From UHGV virus genome UHGV-0203104: 38,800 nucleotides of DNA. One strand, 5' to 3'. Position numbers and translations under genes: made by a program. Below, one piece after another: positions 891-38,800 of the stretch. Numbering within the stretch: the first letter of the stretch is position 1; each line of letters opens with the position of its first letter. The stretch is from a virus. The notes under the pieces are model-generated. The model did not search any database. It was given only the letters and a program-made list of their open reading frames with translations, and had not been told where the DNA came from.

Positions 891-1253
891 GGGGCTGATT
901 CTGGATTCGACGGGATTTGCGAAACCCAAGGTGCATGCCGAGGGGCGGTTGGCCTCGTAAAAAGCCGCAAAAAATAGTCGCAAACGACGAAAACTACGCT
1001 TTAGCAGCTTAATAACCTGCTTAGAGCCCTCTCTCCCTAGCCTCCGCTCTTAGGACGGGGATCAAGAGAGGTCAAACCCAAAAGAGATCGCGTGGAAGCC
1101 CTGCCTGGGGTTGAAGCGTTAAAACTTAATCAGGCTAGTTTGTTAGTGGCGTGTCCGTCCGCAGCTGGCAAGCGAATGTAAAGACTGACTAAGCATGTAG
1201 TACCGAGGATGTAGGAATTTCGGACGCGGGTTCAACTCCCGCCAGCTCCACCA
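891..1253 (+). ncRNA. ssrA: tmRNA (SsrA), 363 nt ending in CCA
   Basis: Starts GGGGCTGATTCTGGATTCGACGGG, contains the tag-reading-frame region and the tRNA-like 3' end GGTTCAACTCCCGCCAGCTCCACCA; matches E. coli ssrA as I recall it. Confidence 0.95.
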
Positions 1254-3274: not shown

Positions 3275-3756
3275 GACAGCAGCCCTCCCACCGTTTTACT
3301 AATATCACTTAAGGCAGATGTTGCCATGTCCTGCAGATTATTCAGTTGCGTACTGAGATCACCGAACATATCGGACAGGGATTCATCCACCCGTTTGAGC
3401 GACAGGGTGAACTCAATCCGGCGCGGCATACCGTCGCGGAAAAACTCCGTTTTAGTCAGATTCAGTCCCTCAATCACATACATGCCGTAAATCGTGCCGC
3501 TGCCTTCAATCAGGGGCCATGCTTTTCCCTGTTCTGCCATCTGCTCCAGAGCCAGCAACGACAGCCTGCCGCCCGTTATCTCCGGCATAAGAACACCAGA
3601 AAGCGTCAGCATGTCGTTGTCCGGTCCCAGAAACTGCGTGGACGGACGACGGTTTACCCGGCTGTTTGCCGCATGTCGCCAGCTGCGTTGATACTGCAGT
3701 TCCTGATACGGAACGGTGCGCAGCATAAACACGTACAATCCCAGCACCATCATCAT
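3271..3756 (-). CDS. U: Tail protein U homolog
   Basis: 161 aa, translationally coupled between T and D; P2 U is about 159 aa. Confidence 0.8.
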   Translation of the reverse strand: MMMVLGLYVFMLRTVPYQELQYQRSWRHAANSRVNRRPSTQFLGPDNDMLTLSGVLMPEITGGRLSLLALEQMAEQGKAWPLIEGSGTIYGMYVIEGLNLTKTEFFRDGMPRRIEFTLSLKRVDESLSDMFGDLSTQLNNLQDMATSALSDISKTVGGLLS

Positions 3757-6700
3757 GCGTCGTATCCCCCCTGATCGCTGTAGTTACTCCTGGCTTTTGC
3801 CTTCAGCCTGCGTTCACGTTCATCAAGCTGGCGTGCCACCTCCCGCGCAATATCCTGCGCACTTTGTCCTGGCTGCGTCTGAATGATGATCTGCGTCGGT
3901 GCCTCAATCCGGTGAACGGGCGGCACAGTGGCTGCACGACTCACCATCGCTTCGCCACCTTTCGCGGGAAGTGCCAAAGGATGCAACGGTGGAAGCTCTG
4001 CAGGCGCGGCAGCAACGCCCATCATTCCGGCAACAACGGCAGCCAGTGCAGCTGTATTTCTCCGGCTGGTCACATTTGCCGGGCCGTTAACAATTTCCGG
4101 CCCGTTTTCACCGACGATGCCAAACTGCCCGCGCGGGATATAGCCGCCGCTGTCATACATCCCCGCAAAGCCATATCCCCATGACGGAAAACCACCCGAT
4201 GGCATCATCACTTTACCGTCTGCATTCACCGTCGCAGGTTGCTGACGCGTCACTCTTTCCGGCAGTTTCGCCTTTGCAGCCTCTTTACTGACAATGCCGA
4301 GTTTCTCCAGTAACCAGGAAACGCCGGATTTCAGGGAGTCCAGCGGATGCATGACCATATTCAGCCCTTCCGCCAGTGCCTCCCCGAATCGTCGCCCCAT
4401 TGCCGCTGCGCTCTGCAGTTCGGCAGAGGTCGATTTAACGGGCGTCAGCAGATCAGTAAACCAGCCCCACAACGCCTGCACTTTGTCGCCAATCCACTGA
4501 AACACAGGCTTAAGTGGTTCGAATGCTGCACTGATGGGACCTGCCGCCGCTTTGAATCCTTCCACCACACCAGCGAGAAATGCGGTGATGGGTTGCCAGT
4601 ATTTCCAGACAACCAGCGCCACGCCCGCCAGTGCAGTAACCACAAGACCTATCGGACTGAGCAGAGCACCTAACAGACCAGATATGGCATACAGGGCAAC
4701 GCGCAGCATCGCCAGCGGACCGGATGCCAGTACTCGCAGCACCGCGCCTGCGGCAGCCAGTCCACCGCGTAGTGCTGCCAGTGGATTCATAAACATCACA
4801 GCAACAGCACGCAAACCGGATAATCCAGACCGCAACAGTGCAACCGGCACACCTGCTACAGTTTTCAGGACATTCCCCGTCAGTGATGCCGTGCGGCGCA
4901 AAGACGACAACGGCGCAGTAAGTAAACCCGCTGCGTTGCCCGATGAAGCAAGCCCGCGTCGCAGCAGTGCCAGTGGAGCGCCAGCTAACCAGGACAACGC
5001 GCTGCTGGTTCGTGTTACTGCTGCCGTAACGGAAGATAACGTTTTGATACCCAGCACAGAGAATCCCAGACGGATGACTGCCAGCGGCCCCAGCACTGCA
5101 GCCAGCACCACCGCTAAGGTGCCGAGGCCTACGGTAACCGCAGCCACAACAGCCGCTACTTTCATCAGTGTGCCTGTCAGTTCCGGGTTAGCTTCCACCC
5201 AGCGGCGCAACGCCCCCGTGATGCTTTTCACCGTGTACAGAATATCCATCAGCGGCTGGCGCAGCGTTTCGCCCAGGCTGCTGAAGGTGTTCTGCGCTCC
5301 GGTTTTGACCAGCAACCACTGAGCAGAAAGTGAGTCTTTGTTGATGTCGGATTCTTTCTGCATGGAACCGAGCGCATCATTGCCCGCTGTCAGTTTTAGC
5401 TGGCGCTGCAGTTCCGGAAGGTTGTTTGCCAGTTTCGCCGCGTCATCACCAAACTCTTTACCAAACAACATGGTCATGGCAGACAGACGCTTGTCCTGCG
5501 GCAGTGCGTTCACCTTCTCCAGCACACGCTGGATAGTTCCCATTGCATCCTTCGTCATCTGCTTTTCAATCACTTCAGGATTGAGTTTCAGCAGATTCAT
5601 CCCTTCAAAGAAACTCTTGCTTTGCATGGTGGCAATGGACAATTCACGCACCATCGCGTTTGCTGCACTGGCTGCAACCTCCGGCGCAGCGCCCAGTGTC
5701 AGAAAGGTGGAACCCAGTGCCGCCGCTTTACGATAATCCAGACGGTCAGCCACACCGCCCAGACGTTGCATCACATCAATGATGTCCGCCCCTTTCGACA
5801 TGGCGTTATCATCCAGATAGTTCAGCGCATCGCCGAGCTGTTCAATATTGCGGGTAGGTATTTTGTAGAGCTGGGCGATTTTCCCCAGACTTTCTGACAG
5901 TTCATCCGCTGGCAGCTCAAAGGCTGTTGCCGCCTTTGCTGCCGTACTGGCGAAGGCCAGCAGGTCACGTTTCTGGTCTTCCCAGCTGTCGTCAGGGTTT
6001 GCGACGTTCATGCGCGCACCACCTTCAACCAGTGCAGCGAAGTCCACCGCACCGTTTTCCATCGGCAACTGTTCGCTGGCAGCCTTGATGGCATCCTGCA
6101 TTTCATAAAAGCGTGCAGTGCGGTTGCCATTATCGTCACGCAGACCATTGACCTGCTTTGCCACACCTTTCATGGCATCTTCCATGCTGGTATAGCTTTT
6201 TACTGCCGCCATCACTGGCGCACCCATTGCCAGCCCTGCAGCCGTGGTAGTGGCTCCGGCTCCTGCGATGCGATCGCGCACTTCAAGCCGTCTTGAGTAT
6301 TGTTCTCTGGCAGCGTTCATCCGTGCCTGTTGTTCACCCAGACGTTTAAGTGCTTTTTGCTGGCCCTCCAGTACCTGCCTTGTTTCTTCAGCATTTTTCT
6401 TAAGTTCTCGCTGGGCACTACTGAGTTGTCTGGTATCAATCCCTGATTCTTTAAGTGCCTGACGTTGTCTCTGGACCGCCCCCAACAAGCCGTTATAGGT
6501 CTGCTGAAGTTCCTGTACTCGTGTTTTGGCCTGACTGAATAACTTTGCCTGCGCGGCGGTTGGCCTGTTAGTGGCAGCAAATTGTGTGGCGAGTTTTGCC
6601 GCCTCTTCGCGGGCTGCGTTCAGGTTGTTGGCTGTTATGGCTAGTTGCGAGCGCGTCTTGCGAAATTCATCAATTCTGCCAGCCTGCTTATTCAGTTCTT

Positions 6701-15230: not shown

Positions 15231-16250
15231 ATGGATTTTAAAGAATGGTTAAGCTCAAATAAAAACAGTCTTCCCGATGCAACCAGAGAAAATTTTGAAA
15301 AGCTATACTGGGAGTTCATAGACTTCAAAGCAAATGAATACATGTCGGAATTTAAAGAAAAAAAAGCAGAATTACTGGCCCAAAATGAACAAGAACATCA
15401 AAATTTCATAAAAAGACATATTAATATTTGGAGAGATGGTTTTGGATTATTAGAGTTGTTGTTAGAGTTATGTATTAATCAAGGTTCTAAATATAGTACA
15501 AGCTTACAACAAGATAAAGACACCGACACAAACAACCATTTGCAATTACTAATTAGATTACACGCAAAGGCATGTGCAATTTCTAACGAGATTTTATGTC
15601 TATTAAAAAATGGATTTCCTGACGCAGCCCATGCAAGATGGAGAGCACTGCATGAAACAAATGTAACACTACATTTCATCGACAAGCATGGTCCTAAATG
15701 CTCAGAAATATTTTTAGCACATGAAATTTATGATAGCTATTATCTAATGATGTCACATAAAAAGTATGAAAGCAGGCTTCAAGAGAAAGGGCCCAGTAAT
15801 GAAGAGGCCAGAGAATTAACAGACTTGTTCGATAAAGCCATTAAAACATATGGCAGAAGTTTTGATTCGCAATATGGTTGGGCCACACCATTTTTAACTG
15901 ATAAGAAACACAAAGCTAGCTTTAAATCAATTGAAAAAGAAGTTAAATTAGATCACATGCGCCCATATTTTAAATGGGCATGCCAAAACATCCATGTAAA
16001 TATAAAAACAATCACTAATAGCTTGTCACTACCCCATCACCTGAAGAACGTCATCAACATAGGTCCAAGTAATTTCGGATTAGTTGACCCTGCACATGCT
16101 ACAGCCCTTAGTCTTACTCAATCAACGTGCTGTCTACTGAAAAATGACTGCAACGAAGAGAATTTAATTTTCATGAATTTAATTAAACAACTATCTATAG
16201 AAATAGGGGACACATTCCTATCTATATCTAACTCAATTGAAAACAAATAA
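15231..16250 (+). CDS. AT-rich cargo gene inserted between V and S; hypothetical protein with a possible HEPN-like R-x4-H motif
   Basis: 339-aa ORF on the opposite strand to the flanking tail genes; visibly AT-rich against GC-rich neighbours; AGGG RBS 6 nt before ATG; stop codon 3 nt from the S stop codon. Contains HARWRALHE (R136-x4-H141). Confidence 0.7.
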   Translation: MDFKEWLSSNKNSLPDATRENFEKLYWEFIDFKANEYMSEFKEKKAELLAQNEQEHQNFIKRHINIWRDGFGLLELLLELCINQGSKYSTSLQQDKDTDTNNHLQLLIRLHAKACAISNEILCLLKNGFPDAAHARWRALHETNVTLHFIDKHGPKCSEIFLAHEIYDSYYLMMSHKKYESRLQEKGPSNEEARELTDLFDKAIKTYGRSFDSQYGWATPFLTDKKHKASFKSIEKEVKLDHMRPYFKWACQNIHVNIKTITNSLSLPHHLKNVINIGPSNFGLVDPAHATALSLTQSTCCLLKNDCNEENLIFMNLIKQLSIEIGDTFLSISNSIENK

Positions 16251-25751: not shown

Positions 25752-28088
25752 TTACAAATATGTATTGCTATGTAGAGATGTGTTTATTCCATCTTCTATC
25801 TCAATTTTTGACGAAGCATACTCATCATTCGCACTATCATCAATATCAAACTCATCTTGTAGATGAAGTGACTCATTTAACGGTCTATAAAACTCACCCA
25901 TCATCATTTTGTAATGGGCAGTATGCTCACTACACTCAAATATCTTCTGAAAAACAATTAAATATTTTTGCACAGACTCCGTATCTAAATTCATATAAAG
26001 ATCATCACCTGCAAAATGAGAACCATCATTAATCCATGACACTAAAGATTTAAATATGATTTTTTCATCACCATAAAAATGACATTCAAGCTTCCTAATA
26101 TCCATCCCACCTAATATCTTAAAGTAATTCTCCAAAATCCTTCGCATTGTATTTTGTATAGTATTATTATTAATATCTGTTCTTCTCAATTCGCACCAGA
26201 GCAAATCATAAGACGTTTTTATTGGGTTTGATTCGCACTTTTCAAGATATGAGACCTTCCCTTTTTTCCTTACAATCCAAAAAGTCTCCTCTTTCATTGC
26301 TTGATTACCGGATCTTTTAGTATTAAAAGTCAACTCTTTATGAAAATAAATATTATGTGTAAGGAATATAATTTGCTTAATATTTCCTTCATCCTTACGA
26401 ACATCCTCCATTAAATCTTTAATCAACGAACTTACAATAAACAGAATATCACTATCTAAACTTGAAATTGGATCATCAAATACTACAACACGATCATCTA
26501 AAACACCTGATGCATTATCACTCCCTCTAACAAGGCTATAAAAATACAAAAAAGTGATAAATGTCTTTTCTCCCTCGCTAAGGGTTGTACGAGCATTATC
26601 TCCACTATCTCTCACTATCATATAATGCTTTTTATCTTCGGAGGGTTTTAAGTAAAAATTTTTGAAGCCATAAGAATCCAGAATCTTGTTAATTTTTGTA
26701 ATAGTTGGAAGAGTACTGGTTTTATTAGACTCAATTGCCTCAATAGCCGAAGCATTTAACATTAACTTCTTTTTGTCTTCCTCTAACCCAGATTTAAGCC
26801 CTTGTAACTTCCTATTAAATTTATCAGATTCGCTACGGTAAGAAGTTATTTCAGACTTTAACTCCACCTTTACGATATATGCCCATATCTGATTAGAAAG
26901 ATTACTAGCCTCTACCTTTCTATTACTGTGTATTTTGTTATTATTATCTATCAATAGATTTGAATCATTCAAAAAAGAAATAAAATCATCAACAACTTCA
27001 CTTAAGTCACTAAAATGAACTGATTCACTTAAAAAATTGCGTTTATTTTTTGCCAATTCAAAATTCTTGTTTAATTCAGATAATACTATCTTAGCCTTAT
27101 CCTCAAACACTTCATAGTTTATGAATGGAGATTTAATCGCCCTTATATCATCTATCGCCTGCAAGATATTATTAAGTTGATGTTCATATTGTAAAACCAA
27201 TGCATCGATTTCTCTTTTTTTTAACTCATATGTTTTATCAAAATATGATGATAGATTATCAAATATATTATCATTTACATCCTGCTGGCAGAATGGGCAC
27301 TTGGGATTAGATTTACTGAAATATGTTAAACCTTCCTTAACCCAATCACTGTTATTGAGCATTGTAATTAAGTCTGAAACACTAACGTCTTTTTTCCCTA
27401 GAATACGCTCACTCCAAATCTCCCTACTCAAAATATCATCTATCCCATTGAAGGATGGAATTGTAATTGATACATGTGATGTCAATTCAGTAGAAAAAAC
27501 AATTTTTGCTTTCTCAATTAGCTCTGCTATTGAGCAAACTTCTGATGTGTTATTTTCATACTCAGCCAACACTCTAGCTTTAAATTTTTCACTACTATTC
27601 CTTAATCCCTCAAAAGCCTTTGAGAACACATTATCATGTTTTACTTTTTGCTTCCAACATGAATCTTTAAAAGATTTTTCATGGTCTTCGATTTGTTTAA
27701 CAACGCCTAATATATTATCACCACCATCTATTAGCTTTTCCTTTGCTATAATAGATTCTATTAGCTTATTTTTTTCTTCTTCAAGAGATATTAATTTCTC
27801 TTCATCCTCCTTAAGATCGCTACCAAGGGTAAATACACCTTTAATTTTATCTTGACTAAAATTTCTTTCAACAAAATCTTTATTATATACGTAGCTTATT
27901 AAAGATATATTATTTTTCCATTTAATCGGACATGTTGGATATTGTTCAGGGTCATTAATAATTTTACTTATAGTTGTTTTACCTGCACCATTAGCTCCAT
28001 ATAAATAGTTAAATTTAGAAAGCCCATGTAAAAGCTGAGTAGGGCCATTATATGAGCCTACTTTGTCAATAACTACCTCTTCAATCAT
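25752..28088 (-). CDS. RloC/PrrC-like (AAA_13-type) ATPase with zinc hook and putative C-terminal anticodon-nuclease-like region
   Basis: 778 aa, strongly AT-rich. Walker A GANGAGKTT (res 31-39), CPFC zinc-hook-like motif (264-267), ABC-signature-like LSEGEK (503-508), Walker B VVVFDDP (534-540), LTHN (576-579), and C-terminal R-x3-E plus downstream His (RRILE 649-653, H670/H691). Sits between Q and the cos-like site. Confidence 0.6.
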   Translation of the reverse strand: MIEEVVIDKVGSYNGPTQLLHGLSKFNYLYGANGAGKTTISKIINDPEQYPTCPIKWKNNISLISYVYNKDFVERNFSQDKIKGVFTLGSDLKEDEEKLISLEEEKNKLIESIIAKEKLIDGGDNILGVVKQIEDHEKSFKDSCWKQKVKHDNVFSKAFEGLRNSSEKFKARVLAEYENNTSEVCSIAELIEKAKIVFSTELTSHVSITIPSFNGIDDILSREIWSERILGKKDVSVSDLITMLNNSDWVKEGLTYFSKSNPKCPFCQQDVNDNIFDNLSSYFDKTYELKKREIDALVLQYEHQLNNILQAIDDIRAIKSPFINYEVFEDKAKIVLSELNKNFELAKNKRNFLSESVHFSDLSEVVDDFISFLNDSNLLIDNNNKIHSNRKVEASNLSNQIWAYIVKVELKSEITSYRSESDKFNRKLQGLKSGLEEDKKKLMLNASAIEAIESNKTSTLPTITKINKILDSYGFKNFYLKPSEDKKHYMIVRDSGDNARTTLSEGEKTFITFLYFYSLVRGSDNASGVLDDRVVVFDDPISSLDSDILFIVSSLIKDLMEDVRKDEGNIKQIIFLTHNIYFHKELTFNTKRSGNQAMKEETFWIVRKKGKVSYLEKCESNPIKTSYDLLWCELRRTDINNNTIQNTMRRILENYFKILGGMDIRKLECHFYGDEKIIFKSLVSWINDGSHFAGDDLYMNLDTESVQKYLIVFQKIFECSEHTAHYKMMMGEFYRPLNESLHLQDEFDIDDSANDEYASSKIEIEDGINTSLHSNTYL

Positions 28089-28444: not shown

Positions 28445-28678
28445 TTAATGCAGCCAGCTGTCGTCTTCCCACACCTTCTGCATAATTTTCATCACTTGTT
28501 TTCTTTCTTCGTCCAGTTGCAGTCCGGTTAGTTCCACACCGTTAGAGCTACCTTTGCGAATGCGAATTACCGTTTTGGGATACAGGGGGCGCAGATTGCG
28601 GTAAAGCTCGGATTCAAGGGCGTCCAGGGTAGACTGGCTAATCTTCTGCTCTTTATCGATCATTATTTCAATGCGCAT
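28445..28678 (-). CDS. dinI: DinI-like protein
   Basis: MRIEIMIDK...LDALESELYRNLRPLYP...VWEDDSWLH parallels E. coli DinI (MRIEVTIAK...WESADDWFVSE); start trimmed to the MRIE Met of ORF 28445..28750. Confidence 0.75.
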   Translation of the reverse strand: MRIEIMIDKEQKISQSTLDALESELYRNLRPLYPKTVIRIRKGSSNGVELTGLQLDEERKQVMKIMQKVWEDDSWLH

Positions 28679-28688
28679 AAAAGTCACC

Positions 28689-28877
28689 TCAGCTGATGAC
28701 ATCCATTGAGCGGTTGTATTCGTGGGTTCTGATTTTTGCCATGAGTTCATCAGTCAATTCAGAAACCCACTGCAGAGCCAGCCCCTTCTCTTCATCACTA
28801 CACTCACTAGCCGCTACAAGCTTAAGAAAAAAATCAATGCGCTGGAGCTTCAAAGACTCCAAAAAATAGTCCTGCAT
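28689..28877 (-). CDS. Small SOS-controlled protein upstream of the dinI-like gene (possible Tum-type antirepressor)
   Basis: 62 aa from the internal Met of ORF 28689..28979; a LexA box sits about 45 bp upstream. Function inferred from position only. Confidence 0.45.
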   Translation of the reverse strand: MQDYFLESLKLQRIDFFLKLVAASECSDEEKGLALQWVSELTDELMAKIRTHEYNRSMDVIS

Positions 28878-29030: not shown

Positions 29031-31445
29031 TTAATACAGGTTCCGCCACTGATCATCTTCCTGCAAACGCTGGTTCCGATAGAAGATACGCAGGCCTGCT
29101 CCTGACGGAATACTGCCTCCGCGAAGGAGTAAATCGACCTCTTTCTCGCTGCCATCAAATCCTCTGGACTTCAGCTCATACACGAGCTGCAGTCGCTGAT
29201 GGTCTGTAATTCGCTGTTTGTAGTCTTTACGCCGTTTCGGTTTCACCAGGCGTAACCTTGCTGCCAGTTCCCGGCGCTCTTTTTTGCTCATACTGTGCAG
29301 GTAATCGTGCAGCTCCTTGTCATCCATGCTGGTAATGTCCGTTCTGGGGTTCCCATCAGCTGATTTATCTTTCTCCTGTTGGTTCAAATTTTCAGCAAGG
29401 GGACAGTTATTGCCACGAGTCCAAGGGGCGCAAGCGCCCTGGTCGGCTGCCGCCTCCTGAACGTCAACGGCCTTACGAACCATTTTCCACTTCACTGCAT
29501 GAGTGCAGATCTTGCCCTCTGCAATGGGTGACCAGATGCCATAAATACGAATACCGTGATCGCCATAGGCGGTTGGCTCTTCGTTGATTTCATAAGCGGT
29601 TCTGATGAGGTGATATTTGCGGGGAACCAGTACGCCGCCCTGCTTCATGATGTAGGTGGCAAAACAACCAGCATCAGCAGCAGCCAGGATGGCATCAAGG
29701 CGCGGGTTATCCAGTACCGGCGCACCTGCTTTTTTGTCACCCTGTTGCCTTGCCGCCTGACCAGCCAGCAATCGCAGTTCACGGTAAGCCTGACGCCCCG
29801 GAATGCCAAAGAAGCGGAATTGCTGAACACGATGCAGAGACGCCCAGGCATTAACGTATTCAGCGTTATCACGCAGGGATTTACCCGTTTCCTTACTGAT
29901 CTCGCCAGCCAAACCACGCCCGTCAATATTCTTACTGATATATTTCGCAATGTAGCTTGTCGGCGTTCCTTTGCGCGGGTTTATCAGCTCAGACTTAAAG
30001 CGTGGCCCCGTGTTATTGCCCAGCTCCTCGCGGTCTTCACGGATGGCAAACTTACGCAACAATGCAGTAATGGCGCGGCGGTCTTTTTTGCGCATGAAAC
30101 ACAACAGGTGCCAGTGAACTGTGCCGTCATGATGCGGCTCAGCCACCCGCACGCCATACCAGCGCAACCCGGCTTTGTGCATAGCCTTACGAAATGCAGC
30201 AAACATGCCGACCAGATAATCGCTGCTTTGTCTTACTGTCGCGTTGGTCCAGGTCGGGTTTGGCCTGCCGTTATTTAGCGTGGAATGGAAACGTGACGGA
30301 CAGGTGATGGTGTAGAAAACGGCGCAGTCACCACGCATTTCCGCGATAAGCTCCAGGCCTTTAACACAGGCCATCATCTCATTGCGGCGATGCGCCGGGT
30401 TGCTGCTGCTGGCGTTTACCACATCCTCCATGTTCAGCGTGTCGCCGTCTTCGTTCACCAGTTCATGAGAACGGAAAAACTCCAGCGACTTACGGCGCTG
30501 CTCACGTTTATGCATCACGGCTTCATAGCTGACATAGGGAGATGCTTTTTTGCTGACCAGGCAGACAGCACGCAACTGTTCTTCCCGCCATTCGCAACGC
30601 ATCTTCCATAATTTCCGATACCACCAGTCGGCGCACAGCATACGCGCCAGCGAACCCGGAATGAGTTCATAGGGCACAGGTTTGCGGCGGTTTCTTTTCC
30701 GGCGGAGTTGCTCAAACGCAGGCGGTATGACATCCAGTCGCAGGGTTTCTGCAGCCACCTTTTCCCATGTCTTGCGGATTTCTTCTGGCTTAACATCATC
30801 GGAGGCGTACAAATCACCACAAGCGGCATCAAGACACATGCTCATATGCGCAGCGACAAGGGTAGACAGGCGTTTCACCTGATCCTGACTCATTTCAGGC
30901 AGGATCAGCAGACCGTCCAGCCCTTCATGGCTTGCCATAAAACGAAAAGATGCAGATAGCTGGCTGTCGCGTACATGCTCCAGTCGTTCCAGACATGGCT
31001 TAATCGTCTCACGCAAATAGCGGGAATAAGCCTTTGGCCTGCCCAGGCTGCTGAAATATTCAATACGTTGCATCAGCGGCTTGCTGATATGGGAAGGCTG
31101 GGCGTTGACGTCAGCCAGAATGACCATGTCTGGATTAAAACGCTGCTGCTCATGCACCATCTTTGCCCGGCTAATGAGCTTATCCTGCTCCATTTCGCGT
31201 TGGACAGGATCACGGGATTCATTAAAGAAATAACACTCCCAGACCTGATCACTCAGTGCCTCGCGGCGCAGTCGTTCCTGTTCGTTATCGGTAGCGTACA
31301 GAGTGATCAGGTTTGAAAGCGCAGAAACCGGCGCAACTTCCGCCGGGTCCAGATAAGGGTTAATGGCCTTTTTCGGGCTGTTCCATGAGAATGCTGCGGC
31401 GACCTCGTTAAAGCCGCTGCAGTTGTTCATATCAGCATGGCTCAT
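29031..31445 (-). CDS. A: Rolling-circle replication initiator (A homolog)
   Basis: 804 aa; HUH motif (TVHWHLLCF) and tyrosine motif ([12 protein letters not shown]); size and position as P2/186 gene A. Confidence 0.85.
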
Positions 31446-32299
31446 GCACGCACTCCGTACACGGCTGAACTATCCACGCCACGCGAAGGATCAAATCCCA
31501 CCCAGCAGCGCGGCCCGGAAACAGCGATGATTTCTGTTGCAGATTTACTCTCACCAGCTGCCACACCGATGCTGCGTTTTGCCTTGATGTAGTGGTGAGT
31601 AAAATTGCGATACAGCGAACGGATCAGGGATGTATCACTGTTAGAAACAATGACCGGATGTCCTTCTGATGACCGATGTTTAAGAACGGATGCCAGGTGA
31701 TACTGGTCATCTTCAGTGAAACCATCAGTGTGATAGCCGGAAAACGTACCGTCATACGGCGGATCGCAATACACCACATCCCCCACCTGCAGCATCGCCA
31801 GCGTTTCATCAAAGCTTGCGCAGATAAACGTTGCACGCTGGGCTTTCTCTGCAAATGCGCGAATTTCTTTTTCAGGGAAATACGGATTTTTATAATTACC
31901 GTACGGAATGTTGAAATGCCCGCTCTTGTTATAGCGACATAATCCACGGTAACCATGACGATTGAGATACAGGAAATATACCGCTTTCATGAAATCAGTA
32001 ATTTCAGTGGAGTAATTAAACTCCTGCCTTATGTTGTAATAAGCCACCTCCCTGTTTGCGATCTCAAATAAAACTCTGGCGCGAGATATAAACGATTCAC
32101 AATCAACGGCAACCTTTTTATAGAGGTTGATTAAATCAGGATTAATATCCGCAACCAGATAGCTGGGGTAATCCGTCTCCATCATCACAGCACAGGAACC
32201 CGCGAAAGGTTCAACCAGTCGCGGGCCAGCAGGAAGGTGTTTTTTCAGTTCGGACATAATGGCGGTTTTATTTCCCGCCCATTTCAGGATGGTGCTCAT
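31442..32299 (-). CDS. dam: DNA adenine methyltransferase (Dam family)
   Basis: ILKWAGNK...[11 protein letters not shown] (AdoMet motif) and VVYCDPPY (motif IV); start trimmed to the MSTILKWAG Met of ORF 31442..32371. Confidence 0.85.
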
Positions 32300-32598
32300 A
32301 CAGCACCTCCTGCAATAACATATCCTAAAGCTTCTAATGGGGTTAATGGGCGAATTGATAGCATCACCCATTGTTCTGAAACTGCCATGACGTCATTAAC
32401 CGGAAGCACATGAGAGATAACAGCGGCCCATTCCCTACCCGTAAATACGCCATGCTTCCATTCGCAAAGAGAAAGAACATCACCAACTTTATAGCCACGA
32501 TCGTCTTTACGAAGTTCAGCCGTCTTTTGACCTGCAACCACAGCGTTGAAATACTTAGGTGCAATTTTTAATTGATGGATACGCACTGCCCTTGTCAT
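32296..32598 (-). CDS. Small PUA/ASCH-like protein (hypothetical)
   Basis: About 100 aa from the internal Met of ORF 32296..32658; coupled to the TraR-like gene upstream and dam downstream. Fold assignment is a guess. Confidence 0.4.
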
Positions 32599-34780: not shown

Positions 34781-35419
34781 TTGATTATGAGTTTAATCAA
34801 GGCGGGGAATGATAGTGGTGGGCGCGATGCGATTAATAGGCTTATTAAGGCTTACAACTTCAGCTCACGACAGCAGCTCTGCGAACATCTGGAAGTATCA
34901 AAAAGCACTATGGCTAACAGATACTTAAGGGATAGCTTTCCTGCCGAATGGGTAATCCAATGTGCCCTTGAAACAGGAGCTTCCCTTCTATGGCTGGCTA
35001 CTGGTCAAGGAGATATGTATGTGTGTGAGAACGAAGAAACAAATCTCAAAAATGAACCTCCTGTCACTGTAAGACCACTTTCTAAGATCGTTGCTCCGAG
35101 CATCAAACGTGTTGAACTAAAGAACGGCGAACTGCAGCCAAGTGATGAAATTCTTCTTGATAGCAGCCTGCTTGATGGTGACTCATCCAACGCTTTATTT
35201 GTTAAAACAGCTAATGATAGCTTTGTAGTGGATACGTCTGTTAAACAAGTCAGTAATGGCTTCTGGTTAGTCGATATGGACGGAGTTAAAAGCATCGTCA
35301 AAATTGCGCGCATACCCGGAAACAAAATAGTAGTTAACCAAGATGACACTTCATTTGAATGTTCTATAGATGATGTGGAAGTCGTAGGACGTGCAGTCAA
35401 AATAATCAAGAACCTCTAA
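34781..35419 (+). CDS. cI: Immunity repressor (CI, 186 type)
   Basis: 212 aa; N-terminal HTH (SRQQLCEHLEVSKSTMANRYLR) plus C-terminal domain; immediately upstream of int on the same strand. Confidence 0.7.
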   Translation: MIMSLIKAGNDSGGRDAINRLIKAYNFSSRQQLCEHLEVSKSTMANRYLRDSFPAEWVIQCALETGASLLWLATGQGDMYVCENEETNLKNEPPVTVRPLSKIVAPSIKRVELKNGELQPSDEILLDSSLLDGDSSNALFVKTANDSFVVDTSVKQVSNGFWLVDMDGVKSIVKIARIPGNKIVVNQDDTSFECSIDDVEVVGRAVKIIKNL

Positions 35420-35422
35420 CTT

Positions 35423-36463
35423 ATGACCATCAGAAAACAGCCAAACGGAAAATGGTTGTGTGAGTGCTATCCCAATGGACGCAATGGTAAGCGCGTGCGT
35501 AAGCAATTTGCTACTAAAGGCGAAGCCATTGCGTTTGAAAGCTTCACAATGGAAGAAGTGAACAAAAAACCATGGCTAGGGGAAAAGGAAGATCGGCGAC
35601 ATCTATCAGAATTAATTGAGCTGTGGTATTCCCTGTATGGTCAAACACTCGCAGACCCCAAGCGCCTCATGGCGAAACTTAGAATTATCTGTAATGGTCT
35701 AGGCGATCCCATCGCCTCAGAACTGACAGCTGGTGAGTTTACGAAATACCGCGAAGCACGGTTAAAAGGTGAAGTACGAAATGAAGATGGCACGCTTATG
35801 TCGCCCGTTAAGCCCCGCACGGTAAATCTTGAACAGCGCAACCTATCATCTGTTTTTGGTACACTGAAAAAGCTGGGCCACTGGTCAGCCCCCAACCCGC
35901 TTGCTGGGCTGCCAACATTTAAAATTGCTGAGGGTGAATTGGCGTTCCTGACCTCGGAAGAAATTAAACGTCTGCTGGATGCCTGTGCTGATTCTCAAAG
36001 CCCCAGTCTGCTGATGATTGCAAAAATATGCTTGGCCACCGGCGCACGCTGGAGCGAAGCCGAAAACCTGCAGAGTCATCAGGTATCAAAATACCGTATC
36101 ACTTATACCAAGACTAAAGGAAAGAAAAACCGAACAGTGCCTATTTCAAAGGATTTATATGAAGAACTGCCTAAGAATAGGGGAAAATTATTTACACCTT
36201 GTAGGAAAGCTTTTGAACGTGCGGTAAAACGAGCTGGCATCGAGCTACCAGAAGGGCAATGCACACACGTATTACGACATACATTTGCAAGTCACTTTAT
36301 GATGAATGGCGGAAACATACTGGTGCTGCGCGATATTCTGGGCCATGTCGATATAAAAATGACAATGATTTACGCCCACTTTGCTCCCGACCATCTGGAA
36401 GATGCTGTAACCAAAAATCCTCTTGCTAACCTTGGATGGAGAAGATTAGAAAGTGTTTGTTAA
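35423..36463 (+). CDS. int: Tyrosine integrase (P2/186 family)
   Basis: 346 aa; catalytic region with R...H..R and LGHVDIKMTMIYAH. Confidence 0.9.
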   Translation: MTIRKQPNGKWLCECYPNGRNGKRVRKQFATKGEAIAFESFTMEEVNKKPWLGEKEDRRHLSELIELWYSLYGQTLADPKRLMAKLRIICNGLGDPIASELTAGEFTKYREARLKGEVRNEDGTLMSPVKPRTVNLEQRNLSSVFGTLKKLGHWSAPNPLAGLPTFKIAEGELAFLTSEEIKRLLDACADSQSPSLLMIAKICLATGARWSEAENLQSHQVSKYRITYTKTKGKKNRTVPISKDLYEELPKNRGKLFTPCRKAFERAVKRAGIELPEGQCTHVLRHTFASHFMMNGGNILVLRDILGHVDIKMTMIYAHFAPDHLEDAVTKNPLANLGWRRLESVC

Positions 36464-37499
36464 TAACTATATCCAACAATACCCATGGATATCGTACTTA
36501 CTTATCATAATATATTTTATATATATATGCCTTGAATTATATCTATGCGTATCAAAAAAAGGCTTTAACATGGATGAAAGGCCATTAACAAGTCAATACT
36601 TATTTAAACAATCACTTAGGATTCCTGTATTTTCAGCGATATACTTTGGTATATTTTCCTGGCTTGGACATTCCCCTCAATTTGATAGTGAGGGCTTTAA
36701 TAATTTCATTGCAATTAGCAAGCTTCCTATCGCCTTACTTTCTTTGTCCATACCATTTGTTGCTGTCGTAGCAAACATACACCGCACAGTTCAAACAAAC
36801 CGACAAATTGAGGAAACCAAGCAAAAGAATCTATCTGATAGCTACTATAGCCATCTAAAGTTCGTTACTGATTATTTCACCAATTTACCTAACAAAACCA
36901 TTAAACGCGAACGTCATTATGGTACTAAAGAGATAAGTTATAAAATTAACTACCCAATACATCTATATAGATATATTTTCATAAATAGCTCACCAGAGAA
37001 GGGACGGCCTAAAAATACAGATAAAGAATACATACGTGAAGTGAATAATCACTGGGTTGATATACTAAAAAACCTGGAGAAGATACATTCATCTAATCGT
37101 GGCTCTCAGTGTGACGAAGTTTTAATCCGTCAAATGCAATCTCTTCATTCAATAGAAAAACACTTATCCGAACTTAATCGAATGCTTTGCCTAACTCCAA
37201 TGGAGTTAAATGAACATGGAACTTTATACTTTGATGGATATAAAATGATTACTAACTTCATGTCCAGCATTGAACTTGGCGATACAATTGAAACCTACTT
37301 CAAATTTACCATTGATATTCTTGATATTACCGATAATTTCCTTTCATTCAAGGATGATGGCTCGTCTGGGCAAATCATTATACTTGCAAGATTACTGAAA
37401 GATAATAATCCAGCTATCTTTGATGAAATTATAACAGACAAAGGGAAGGCTCAACCTTCGTTGACCTACAATGGCGACAAATTGGCGGCAGAGGATTAA
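36453..37499 (+). CDS. AT-rich cargo protein with hydrophobic N-terminal segments (hypothetical; possible exclusion/abortive-infection factor)
   Basis: 348-aa ORF (alternative start at 36570, MDERPL..., AGG-containing RBS); strongly AT-rich; apparent hydrophobic helices (IPVFSAIYFGIFSWLG, LPIALLSLSIPFVAVVANI) before a roughly 220-aa soluble domain. Lies between int and attR. Confidence 0.6.
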   Translation: MFVNNYIQQYPWISYLLIIIYFIYICLELYLCVSKKGFNMDERPLTSQYLFKQSLRIPVFSAIYFGIFSWLGHSPQFDSEGFNNFIAISKLPIALLSLSIPFVAVVANIHRTVQTNRQIEETKQKNLSDSYYSHLKFVTDYFTNLPNKTIKRERHYGTKEISYKINYPIHLYRYIFINSSPEKGRPKNTDKEYIREVNNHWVDILKNLEKIHSSNRGSQCDEVLIRQMQSLHSIEKHLSELNRMLCLTPMELNEHGTLYFDGYKMITNFMSSIELGDTIETYFKFTIDILDITDNFLSFKDDGSSGQIIILARLLKDNNPAIFDEIITDKGKAQPSLTYNGDKLAAED

Positions 37500-37584
37500 A
37501 AATGTGTAAAACCGACAAAAACAAAATAACACTAACACATTGTTTTAAAACATAAATACATATTTTTATTATAATAAAAATGGT

Positions 37585-37630
37585 ATGTAGGAATTTCGGA
37601 CGCGGGTTCAACTCCCGCCAGCTCCACCAA
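37585..37630. repeat. attR: displaced 46-bp copy of the ssrA 3' end
   Basis: Identical to 1209-1254. Confidence 0.85.
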
Positions 37631-37758
37631 TCATGATTGGACGGTGTAAGGACTACACCAACAAAAACAGGAAGTTATAAGTCTCAGCAGGACACCGACC
37701 AGACGGTGAGGAGACAAAAAAGGATACGCAACGGAGTCGCGACTCCCTATGACATTAA

Positions 37759-37782
37759 AGCCCGCTGATGCGGGCTTTTTTA
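37759..37782 (+). terminator. Rho-independent terminator downstream of attR (probably the ancestral ssrA terminator)
   Basis: GCCCGC-tgat-GCGGGC hairpin followed by TTTTTTATT. Confidence 0.5.
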
Positions 37783-38212
37783 TTGGTCCTGACCCGCCCT
37801 GAATAGAATTCATCCAATTACAGTCCAGACATATACAGTATCCCTCAGCTCAGTATCAGCTTCTCGACAAATGGTCACTGTTATTTACCCGTTGCCAGAA
37901 AGAGAATAATTTGCCCCCATAGCCAGCCTTCCCGGAATCTGTATATTCATTAATATTGTTATCGATTCCATCAAGTAACATAGGTTGGATGCGATTGATC
38001 TTACTCACATTAGTCGACACGGAACTCAGTAAGTTGAACTCTGAAAAAGCAGTTTAAATAGCATTTAAACAAATGCCACCAGTTCGAAAAAGAGTATAAG
38101 CACACTTAATATATTGTTTTAATTATTCATTTCCTTTCAACCCAATTCTTATCCCTCACATTATTTGTTATTAATTTGTTGTTTTTGATCACAATAAGAA
38201 AACAATATGTAA

Positions 38213-38800
<588 letters not shown>

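Follow-up and report, generated by a model that had tools for sequence, protein, structure and literature searches.

Here we describe a gene of 348 codons that lies between the integrase gene (int) and the right-hand attachment site (attR) of a prophage contained in the virus genome UHGV-0203104, a stretch of 38,800 nucleotides that is called the window below. Its product, as hydropathy, charge distribution and structural modelling strongly indicate, is an inner-membrane protein with the N-terminus out and the C-terminus in. We would put somewhat better than even odds on an anti-phage role for this protein. The reading that we prefer, with a probability of roughly 0.45, is that of a lysogen-expressed membrane sensor-effector whose outcome, either abortive infection or exclusion, is not fixed; abortive membrane disruption, taken specifically, is a doubtful though conceivable version of it. 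The type is a familiar one, i.e., an accessory membrane protein expressed in the lysogen from a prophage hotspot. What is undescribed is the family: judged from the searches reported here it is unnamed, large (about 1000 clusters at 50% identity) and of unrecognized fold.

A preliminary description of this DNA had placed at this locus an open reading frame (ORF) of 348 codons that overlaps the integrase stop codon and ends about 85 bp before attR, and it was found as described, with an overlap of 11 nt with int and a distance of exactly 85 nt to attR. The start codon is, however, GTG and not the ATG that had been reported, and the end coordinate given at that time, 37584, is the last base ahead of attR, the ORF itself ending at 37499. 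The stronger AT-richness attributed to the gene in comparison with int was also borne out (GC 0.35 vs. 0.46): the GC content is 0.349 in positions 36570-37499 and 0.256 in 36453-36569, against 0.457 in the integrase gene and 0.497 in the whole prophage. Judged from its many homologous clusters and from ratios of non-synonymous to synonymous substitution rates (dN/dS) well below 1, this ORF is a genuine gene under selection, and the same ratios rule out a pseudogene or a chance ORF. The allele of the window is present in 14 of 5426 complete Escherichia coli genomes.

The protein matches PHROG 17460, a family of unknown function, over its full length (E 2.2e-154, residues 4-332 against positions 2-343 of the 343 of the profile). 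A word-based search returned 31 homologous clusters, all of them from Enterobacteriaceae and all called hypothetical, and a second profile search likewise yielded only hypothetical proteins, from Escherichia, Citrobacter, Klebsiella, Enterobacter, Cronobacter, Providencia, Pectobacterium and Raoultella. An exhaustive search with a hidden Markov model against 1.84 billion representatives gave 986 family representatives when the threshold was E<=1e-3 and 452 when it was E<=1e-10; most have 320-400 aa, and each stands for a cluster at 50% identity. A scan of species-representative genomes with a closer alignment retrieved 7 loci. Most of the family comes from prophages of Enterobacterales, and outliers occur in Vibrio and Pseudomonas. 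It is absent from plasmids except for one record, CP019275.1 (37,446 bp), itself a circular Fels-2-like phage that is filed both as a phage and as an E. coli plasmid, and in which the start of the record cuts through the family member. Neither Pfam nor NCBIfam contains a match for the protein, and no Pfam match was obtained among 60 diverse members; a sequence-profile search of the PDB gave nothing below E 0.1, and comparison of the structural model with the PDB and with viral structures found no neighbors. Among the 38,880 PHROG families there was, beyond phrog_17460, a single hit at chance level, and no PHROG annotated as exclusion is similar. We found no literature on the PHROG 17460 family. 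The remote-homology search proposed in the preliminary description has thus uncovered a large family, but neither a named one nor a fold.

Two or three transmembrane (TM) helices had been expected at the N-terminus, and three were obtained both by hydropathy (aa 13-33, about 54-72 and 85-108) and in the AlphaFold2 model (helices 12-34, 49-70 and 79-97/99-143), which has a mean predicted local distance difference test score (pLDDT) of 83 and a predicted template modelling score of 0.63. In this model, TM1 is followed by a basic loop, TM2, a short helix, TM3, a stalk helix extending to residue 143 and an alpha/beta domain reaching about residue 340. Lysine and arginine are enriched in the loop 34-56 and after TM3, both in the protein of the window and in the 60 diverse members, a pattern that puts the N-terminus out and indicates a cytoplasmic location for the large C-terminal domain; the topology check suggested earlier thus returns three predicted helices in this orientation. 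The C-terminal part of about 200 aa corresponds to the soluble domain without recognized motif that had been announced, since neither Pfam nor NCBIfam assigns it.

The conservation of the protein is very unevenly distributed. Column conservation amounts to 0.5-0.73 at residues 41-140, against 0.20-0.30 at residues 141-348, and dN/dS is 0.02-0.03 in the core formed by the membrane hairpin and the stalk (aa 40-145), 0.22-0.25 in the C-terminal domain and 0.03-0.05 in the integrase of the same genomes. By these measures hairpin and stalk are under very strong purifying selection and the C-terminal domain is far more variable. In the hairpin P58, G66, W70, G81, F85, K90, P92, L96 and P101 are near-invariant. 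The stalk carries the family signature N-I-H-R-T-x-Q-T-x-x-Q-I ... K-N-x-x-D-x-Y-Y-S-H-x-K; across the 60 diverse members, which are 20-70% identical, H110, Q114, D129 and L45 are invariant, and R111, T112, T115, Q118, I119, K125, N126, H134 and K136 reach a conservation of at least 90%. Conservation in the stalk follows the 100-degree periodicity of a helix, which therefore would expose one conserved polar face. TM1 is loosely conserved; furthermore, it is missing from a few relatives, and some carry an additional helix at the N-terminus, so that the invariant unit is the TM2-TM3 hairpin together with the stalk.

The genomic setting is that of lysogeny. The chromosome of E. coli MINF_1D (NZ_LR890198.1) contains the window at 100% identity, and the window holds a prophage of about 36.4 kb, of the P2 family and Fels-2-like, bracketed by two 46-bp copies of ssrA sequence, the core of the left-hand attachment site (attL, 1209-1254) being identical to that of attR (37585-37630). 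A switch of the 186 type was recognized in it by Pfam and the annotation pipeline PGAP, with apl, cI, cII and fil, and its integrase is 92.7% identical to Fels-2 Int. The terminator scan detected no terminator on the + strand between 34522 and 37756; the first terminator-like hairpin downstream of cI, int and our gene is presumably the original ssrA terminator. We infer from this arrangement that the lysogenic promoter drives a common transcript of cI, int and the gene, and that translation of the gene is coupled to that of int; since there is no + strand terminator before 37757 and its start overlaps the int stop, the protein should be present in lysogens.

The relatives reproduce this organization. 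Among the 118 loci of IMG/VR that encode a relative, 80 were retrieved, and in 73 of these the family gene begins where an ORF of about 340 aa on the same strand ends, the distance being -44 to +11 nt in 70 of the 73. This close apposition in nearly all relatives argues for operon transcription and translational coupling instead of a promoter of its own. All but one of these 73 upstream ORFs are Fels-2/186-type integrases. Their identity to the integrase of the first locus is 66-100%, and this reference and the integrase of the window are 99% identical; many of the contigs stop within a few hundred bases after the family gene. Moreover, the order cI-int-gene is also found in divergent subfamilies of E. 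coli, Citrobacter and Klebsiella. The protein WP_051594477.1, which occupies the same slot in other E. coli prophages, was at first taken for unrelated cargo; this was dropped, as its identity of 28% shows it to be a family member.

The same slot is highly variable in content. In 48 loci whose integrase has an identity of at least 88% to that of the window, the identity of the family protein ranges from 27 to 97%, with a median of 35%. In Fels-2 the slot is empty, with 144 bp after int, and in RE-2010, SopEPhi and Cartapus it is filled by an unrelated protein of about 400 aa without any Pfam or PADLOC match, which is another uncharacterized cargo family; the label "RES, NAD+ binding" attached to the Cartapus protein is backed by neither resource. 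Members also occur elsewhere. In the unrelated, non-tailed Vinavirales prophages of Vibrio they form the end of the genome, immediately behind the CI/S24 repressor, and what they have in common with the E. coli protein is limited to the TM hairpin and the stalk; in Pseudomonas a member follows umuDC, in Xenorhabdus another lies between a terminase remnant and an integrase, and in a P2-like prophage of Providencia two paralogues stand in tandem between GpQ and GpA. The GpQ-GpA interval is the principal defense hotspot of P2 phages (PMC9122126, PMC13586616), and the int-att interval is a minor one, with 3% of P2 defense systems (PMC13586616). On these comparisons the slot of our gene is a variable P2-like slot of the kind that holds defense systems, and the gene is a prophage accessory gene. 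The coexistence of nearly constant integrases and diverse alleles in a variable slot suggests the signature of an arms race.

On this basis, the following course of events can be proposed. The protein would be made in the lysogen from the transcript of cI, int and the gene, driven by the lysogenic promoter; its variable cytoplasmic domain would recognize a component of an infecting phage; the conserved module of membrane hairpin and stalk would then oligomerize or open, and membrane integrity or potential would be lost. As a consequence the infection would be aborted, or else the entry or establishment of the incoming genome would be blocked at the inner membrane. An anti-phage activity is made plausible by the placement in a hotspot and in the lysogeny region, by diversification beside a constant integrase and by tandem duplication in a defense hotspot, as well as by the cytoplasmic location of the variable part, by weak hits to two-TM (2TM) effectors and by the precedent of P4 hotspots, where six of eight unknown genes gave phage protection (PMC13586616).

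Several observations weigh against this proposal. PADLOC recognized no catalogued system, giving only marginal hits to KwaA and to 2TM effectors of cyclic-oligonucleotide-based antiphage signaling systems (CBASS), the latter in 3 of the 60 members, so that no convincing match to a known defense family exists, and the fold searches produced no match pointing to a mechanism. The dN/dS of the C-terminal domain, of about 0.2, still denotes purifying and not positive selection, and its variability could be drift under relaxed constraint. Placement in a hotspot is correlative, and slots of this kind also carry virulence or conversion genes, one example being sopE, at another place in SopEPhi. Silencing by H-NS is conceivable for this AT-rich gene. 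Finally, in one IMG/VR contig (IMGVR_UViG_2513237219_000007) an insertion of about 1.18 kb, which is presumably an insertion sequence, interrupts a copy of the gene, and the gene is therefore dispensable. The preliminary description had assigned the gene to the class of exclusion, abortive-infection or conversion genes; the int-att slot, the membrane character of the protein and the contexts beside the Vibrio repressor and in the Providencia hotspot fit this class, while nothing within it separates defense from other kinds of conversion.

Among the alternatives, the one that fares best, though we hold it to be unlikely, is strict superinfection exclusion, in which, by analogy with P22 SieA, HK97 gp15, T4 Imm and lactococcal Sie2009, the membrane module would bind an inner-membrane component of the host or the ejection machinery and block the translocation of DNA without killing the cell. 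The sie genes of lactococcal P335 phages stand between int and the repressor, and a predicted inner-membrane protein encoded in a lysogeny operon occupies a comparable modular position; in addition, the periplasmic helix and loop (aa 76-92) are highly conserved and could contact a conserved partner. However, the variable part, which presumably sets specificity, is cytoplasmic, almost nothing of the protein is exposed to the periplasm, and the PHROG families annotated as exclusion show no similarity.

Less likely still is a lysogenic conversion unrelated to conflicts between phages, by which the envelope, transport, stress tolerance or colonization of the host would be altered. A position next to an att site is classic for conversion genes, the cargo is AT-rich and the matches to defense families are unconvincing, all of which would suit such a role. 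Nevertheless, the family also occurs as tandem paralogues in the GpQ-GpA defense hotspot and its alleles are extremely diversified beside a nearly constant integrase, which fits antagonistic coevolution better than a physiological role; furthermore, no homology exists to transporters, glycosyltransferases or acyltransferases.

Another alternative concerns the product itself. In PGAP the coding sequence (WP_231531042.1) begins at ATG 36570, i.e., at Met40, and comprises 309 aa, and the preliminary description had considered this internal start to have the better ribosome-binding context and the AT-rich stretch 36470-36560 a possible promoter. The true product would then be a protein of two helices preceded by a promoter or leader, an improbable arrangement in our view. 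Besides the annotation, it has in its favor that Met40 is at least 90% conserved in the close subfamily, that a weak AAGG precedes this ATG by 7 nt, and that a few relatives (L028, L089, P0018) have no extension. GTG 36453, however, is preceded by GGAG at 11 nt, and the comparison of the family shows the upstream part to be coding. Indeed, an alignment of the 31 closest clusters shows a hydrophobic helix in the first 39 residues, in which Glu28 is near-invariant. Among 66 unique family ORFs of viral contigs, the frame upstream of the position equivalent to Met40 is open for at least 27 codons in all but three, one of which is the copy split by the insertion, and it encodes a strongly hydrophobic helix and then basic residues. 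In distant members this position is often Leu, Ile, Val or Lys, and there is therefore no internal start in those ORFs. The extension evolves with a dN/dS of 0.29-0.56, below 1, and is modelled as a helix (12-34) with pLDDT 82-90 across residues 11-40. As to the promoter, a consensus scan found no promoter-like site in 36470-36560, and the sites of the region do not exceed the shuffled expectation; since this stretch encodes the conserved TM1, an internal promoter was discarded. The family comparison hence favors the long form with three TM helices, although a shorter isoform starting at Met40 may also be made in this subfamily. Whatever the function, the RefSeq/PGAP annotation shortens the gene by 39 codons and loses one TM helix.

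The 3' end of the gene is of interest from a different perspective. Its last codons, for the peptide GDKLAAED, overlap a pair of direct repeats 11 bp apart, and in divergent members the C-terminus is often G-[DG]-x-L-A-A-[EA]-[DH], which at the DNA level is a direct pair of TGGCG[AG]CA, with the same spacing. In alleles with an earlier stop this pair is non-coding, just past the stop, at a fixed distance from the att core and with conserved sequence beyond. A second pair (1302-1320) and an inverted copy (1342-1349) lie beside attL, and the octamer TGGCG[AG]CA has 14 copies in the window against 3.9 expected. A second subgroup of integrases is associated instead with repeats of the TCCAC type, into which some ORFs read. 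The repeats at 37472-37490 (P arm) and those near attL are probably the arm-type sites of Int in the attachment site of the phage (attP). A protein motif GDxLAAE or a degron resembling the ssrA tag was considered and dropped, as other alleles have these repeats outside the coding sequence and further copies lie beside attL; such a footprint of attP arm sites in a C-terminal "motif" calls for caution in motif inference near att sites. From the position of the repeats it follows that the gene would take up all the room from int to the attP arm, inside the mobilized phage genome, with its 3' end constrained by recombination signals.

An accessory factor of the phage life cycle, acting in integration, excision or lysis, e.g., as a modulator of Int, is very improbable. 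Such a role would account for the coupling to int and for the overlap with the attP arm sites: the start of the gene overlaps the int stop, its 3' end overlaps the arm-type repeats and the gene adjoins int in 73 of the 80 viral loci. But Fels-2, with so similar an Int, lacks the gene in this slot, other relatives carry an unrelated gene there, the members of Vibrio (after the repressor), Providencia (GpQ-GpA) and Pseudomonas (after umuDC) have no integrase as neighbor, and the overlap with the arm sites varies among alleles and looks incidental.

Other cargo was observed in the same prophage. A 777-aa ATPase of the AAA_13 type (25752-28088, - strand) matches the PADLOC candidate PDC-S06 (E 2e-265), with weaker similarity to PrrC and LmuB, and lies between portal and GpA, in the main P2 defense hotspot; this match and this position make it a second likely defense gene of the prophage. 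A 339-aa DUF5677 protein (15231-16250, + strand), encoded on the strand opposite to the surrounding tail genes and without PADLOC match, is likely the product of an accessory gene in a tail-region hotspot. The early region encodes an orphan Dam-type N6-adenine methyltransferase (31442-32371, - strand) and a DinI-like protein (28445-28750, - strand). Just inside attL there are two ORFs of about 155 aa (1377-1859 and 1898-2359, + strand) without Pfam match, one of them with a weak match to PADLOC PDC-S48 (E 1.8e-7), and these may be cargo carried at the opposite end of the prophage. Beyond attR, the region 37631-38312 is about 680 bp of non-coding DNA, partly very AT-rich (GC 0.29 around 37950-38250), which leads to glaH, located after the ssrA terminator-like hairpin; the ssrA-adjacent island of other E. 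coli strains is apparently absent from it. The coordinates of the features are collected in the table.

Table. Features of the gene, of its surroundings in the window and of related loci. Positions without a locus name refer to the window.
Feature	Position	Strand	Basis or remarks
Gene for the 348-aa predicted three-helix inner-membrane protein, PHROG 17460	36453..37499	+	GTG start; ORF, homologues, dN/dS < 1, AlphaFold2 pLDDT 83
Internal ATG (Met40)	36570..36572	+	PGAP start and alternative of the preliminary description; probably not the main start
TM1, aa 13-33	36489..36551	+	Hydropathy peak 2.4; AlphaFold2 helix 12-34
Predicted membrane hairpin: TM2 (about aa 54-72), conserved periplasmic helix (79-88), TM3 (90-108)	36612..36776	+	Hydropathy, AlphaFold2
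Predicted cytoplasmic stalk helix, aa 109-143, continuous with TM3	36777..36881	+	Family signature, conservation periodicity
Fast-evolving, predicted cytoplasmic alpha/beta C-terminal domain, about aa 146-340	36888..37472	+	Low conservation, dN/dS 0.22-0.25
Direct repeats TGGCGACA / TGGCGGCA, 11 bp apart	37472..37490	+	Overlap the last codons (GDKLAAED); probable arm-type sites
CI-type repressor gene	34781..35419	+	Pfam Phage_CI_repr and Phage_CI_C; PGAP "phage repressor protein CI"
Fels-2/186-type tyrosine integrase gene	35423..36463	+	Pfam Int_N and Phage_integrase; stop codon within the gene described here
Intact transfer-messenger RNA gene (ssrA)	891-1253		3' end carries the attL core
attR core, duplicated 46-bp ssrA 3' end	37585-37630	+	Identical to 1209-1254
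First terminator-like hairpin 3' of cI-int-gene	37757..37778	+	Terminator scan
Unrelated protein in int-att slot, Salmonella phage RE-2010 gp01	L102 204-1409		
Unrelated protein in int-att slot, Salmonella phage SopEPhi orfY	L103 161-1372		
Unrelated protein in int-att slot, Escherichia phage Cartapus gp33	L104 584-1789		
Family member, Vibrio cyclitrophicus phage 10N.286.54.F4_PE001	L008 5236-6918		
Family member, Vibrio cyclitrophicus phage 10N.239.312.A01_PE001	L009 4350-6023		
Providencia tandem paralogues, 348 and 365 aa, 4-nt overlap	L097 (Logan SRR8591527) 3958-6098		Between ogr/portal (GpQ) and GpA of a P2-like prophage, away from int
Split gene copy, 96% identical	L015 (IMGVR_UViG_2513237219_000007) 3654-5894		Codons 1-56 at 3654-3821, codons 50-347 at 5001-5894

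Taking the preferred reading of a membrane sensor-effector further, we tentatively propose, below even odds, that the invariant hairpin and stalk, with H110, Q114 and D129, constitute a gated membrane-disrupting effector and the hypervariable C-terminal domain a direct sensor of phage proteins, the alleles being swapped as cassettes between the int stop and the attP arms, and that this protein would found an undescribed family of single-polypeptide defense. If so, near-identical Fels-2-like prophages would confer different spectra of immunity through exchanged alleles, a widespread and compact single-gene family of membrane defense would have been missed by current catalogues, where PADLOC gives only a marginal hit, and the int-attP slot of Fels-2/186-type prophages would deserve a search for allelic immunity cassettes. 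The sharp division between a conserved membrane module and a diversifying cytoplasmic domain makes domain swaps for specificity straightforward.

With regard to known systems, PHROG 17460 is the very family of the protein, although it comes without function, name or literature, and the exhaustive search shows the family to be much larger than the PHROG suggests. Among characterized effectors, the CBASS 2TM proteins (Cap15-like; PDLC00691, PDLC02912) present a similar layout of a short TM hairpin followed by a cytoplasmic domain, and the proposed logic is alike, with cytoplasmic activation leading to membrane disruption. The profile PDLC00691 matches the protein at E 2e-4 (19 bits, aa 55-163), a score that membrane composition may inflate; of the 60 members two match PDLC00691 and one 2TM_IV, another member reaching E 4.4e-5, again with a possible bias of composition. 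These matches are a hint and not a proof of membership. The gene has no adjacent CD-NTase cyclase, being flanked by int and attR in the window, while in the relatives the neighbor is int, a repressor or a paralogue; neither a nucleotide-binding beta-barrel nor a SAVED domain was detected, and the protein has an additional TM1 and is encoded by a stand-alone gene in a prophage lysogeny operon. As to SLATT 2TM effectors, no Pfam hit was obtained at E<=1 for the protein or at E<=0.01 for the 60 members, and for O-antigen or envelope conversion of the Gtr or Oac type no glycosyltransferase, flippase or acyltransferase domain was found in Pfam and NCBIfam.

Sie2009, Ltp of Streptococcus thermophilus, P22 SieA and HK97 gp15 are small to medium membrane-associated proteins that are encoded in the integrase-repressor module or next to it and are expressed in the lysogen. 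Our protein shares with them the position in this module and the membrane character; however, it shows no sequence similarity in Pfam or PHROG searches to SieA, gp15, Imm, Sie2009 or Ltp, and both its bulk and its variable part are predicted to be cytoplasmic, neither periplasmic nor surface-exposed. RexB of lambda is a prophage inner-membrane protein co-transcribed with the repressor, and its action results in the loss of membrane potential. The protein described here is likewise predicted to be in the inner membrane, is presumably co-transcribed with the repressor and would have a similar outcome; unlike RexB, it has no RexA-like partner ORF between int and attR and no Pfam or PHROG similarity to the system, and sensor and effector would be one polypeptide.

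The cargo of the P2-family hotspots (Old, Tin, Fun/Z and the GpA-GpQ systems) is comparable in location, as the gene occupies the int-att slot and has paralogues in the GpQ-GpA interval of Providencia, although PADLOC does not recognize it as a catalogued system. Finally, CapRel(SJ46) is a fused sensor-effector of a temperate phage, in which a conserved effector is joined to a diversifying C-terminal part that determines specificity. The domains are entirely different, as the effector would here be a membrane module and not an enzyme, and the likeness is one of logic only; nevertheless, our protein presents the same pattern of conservation.

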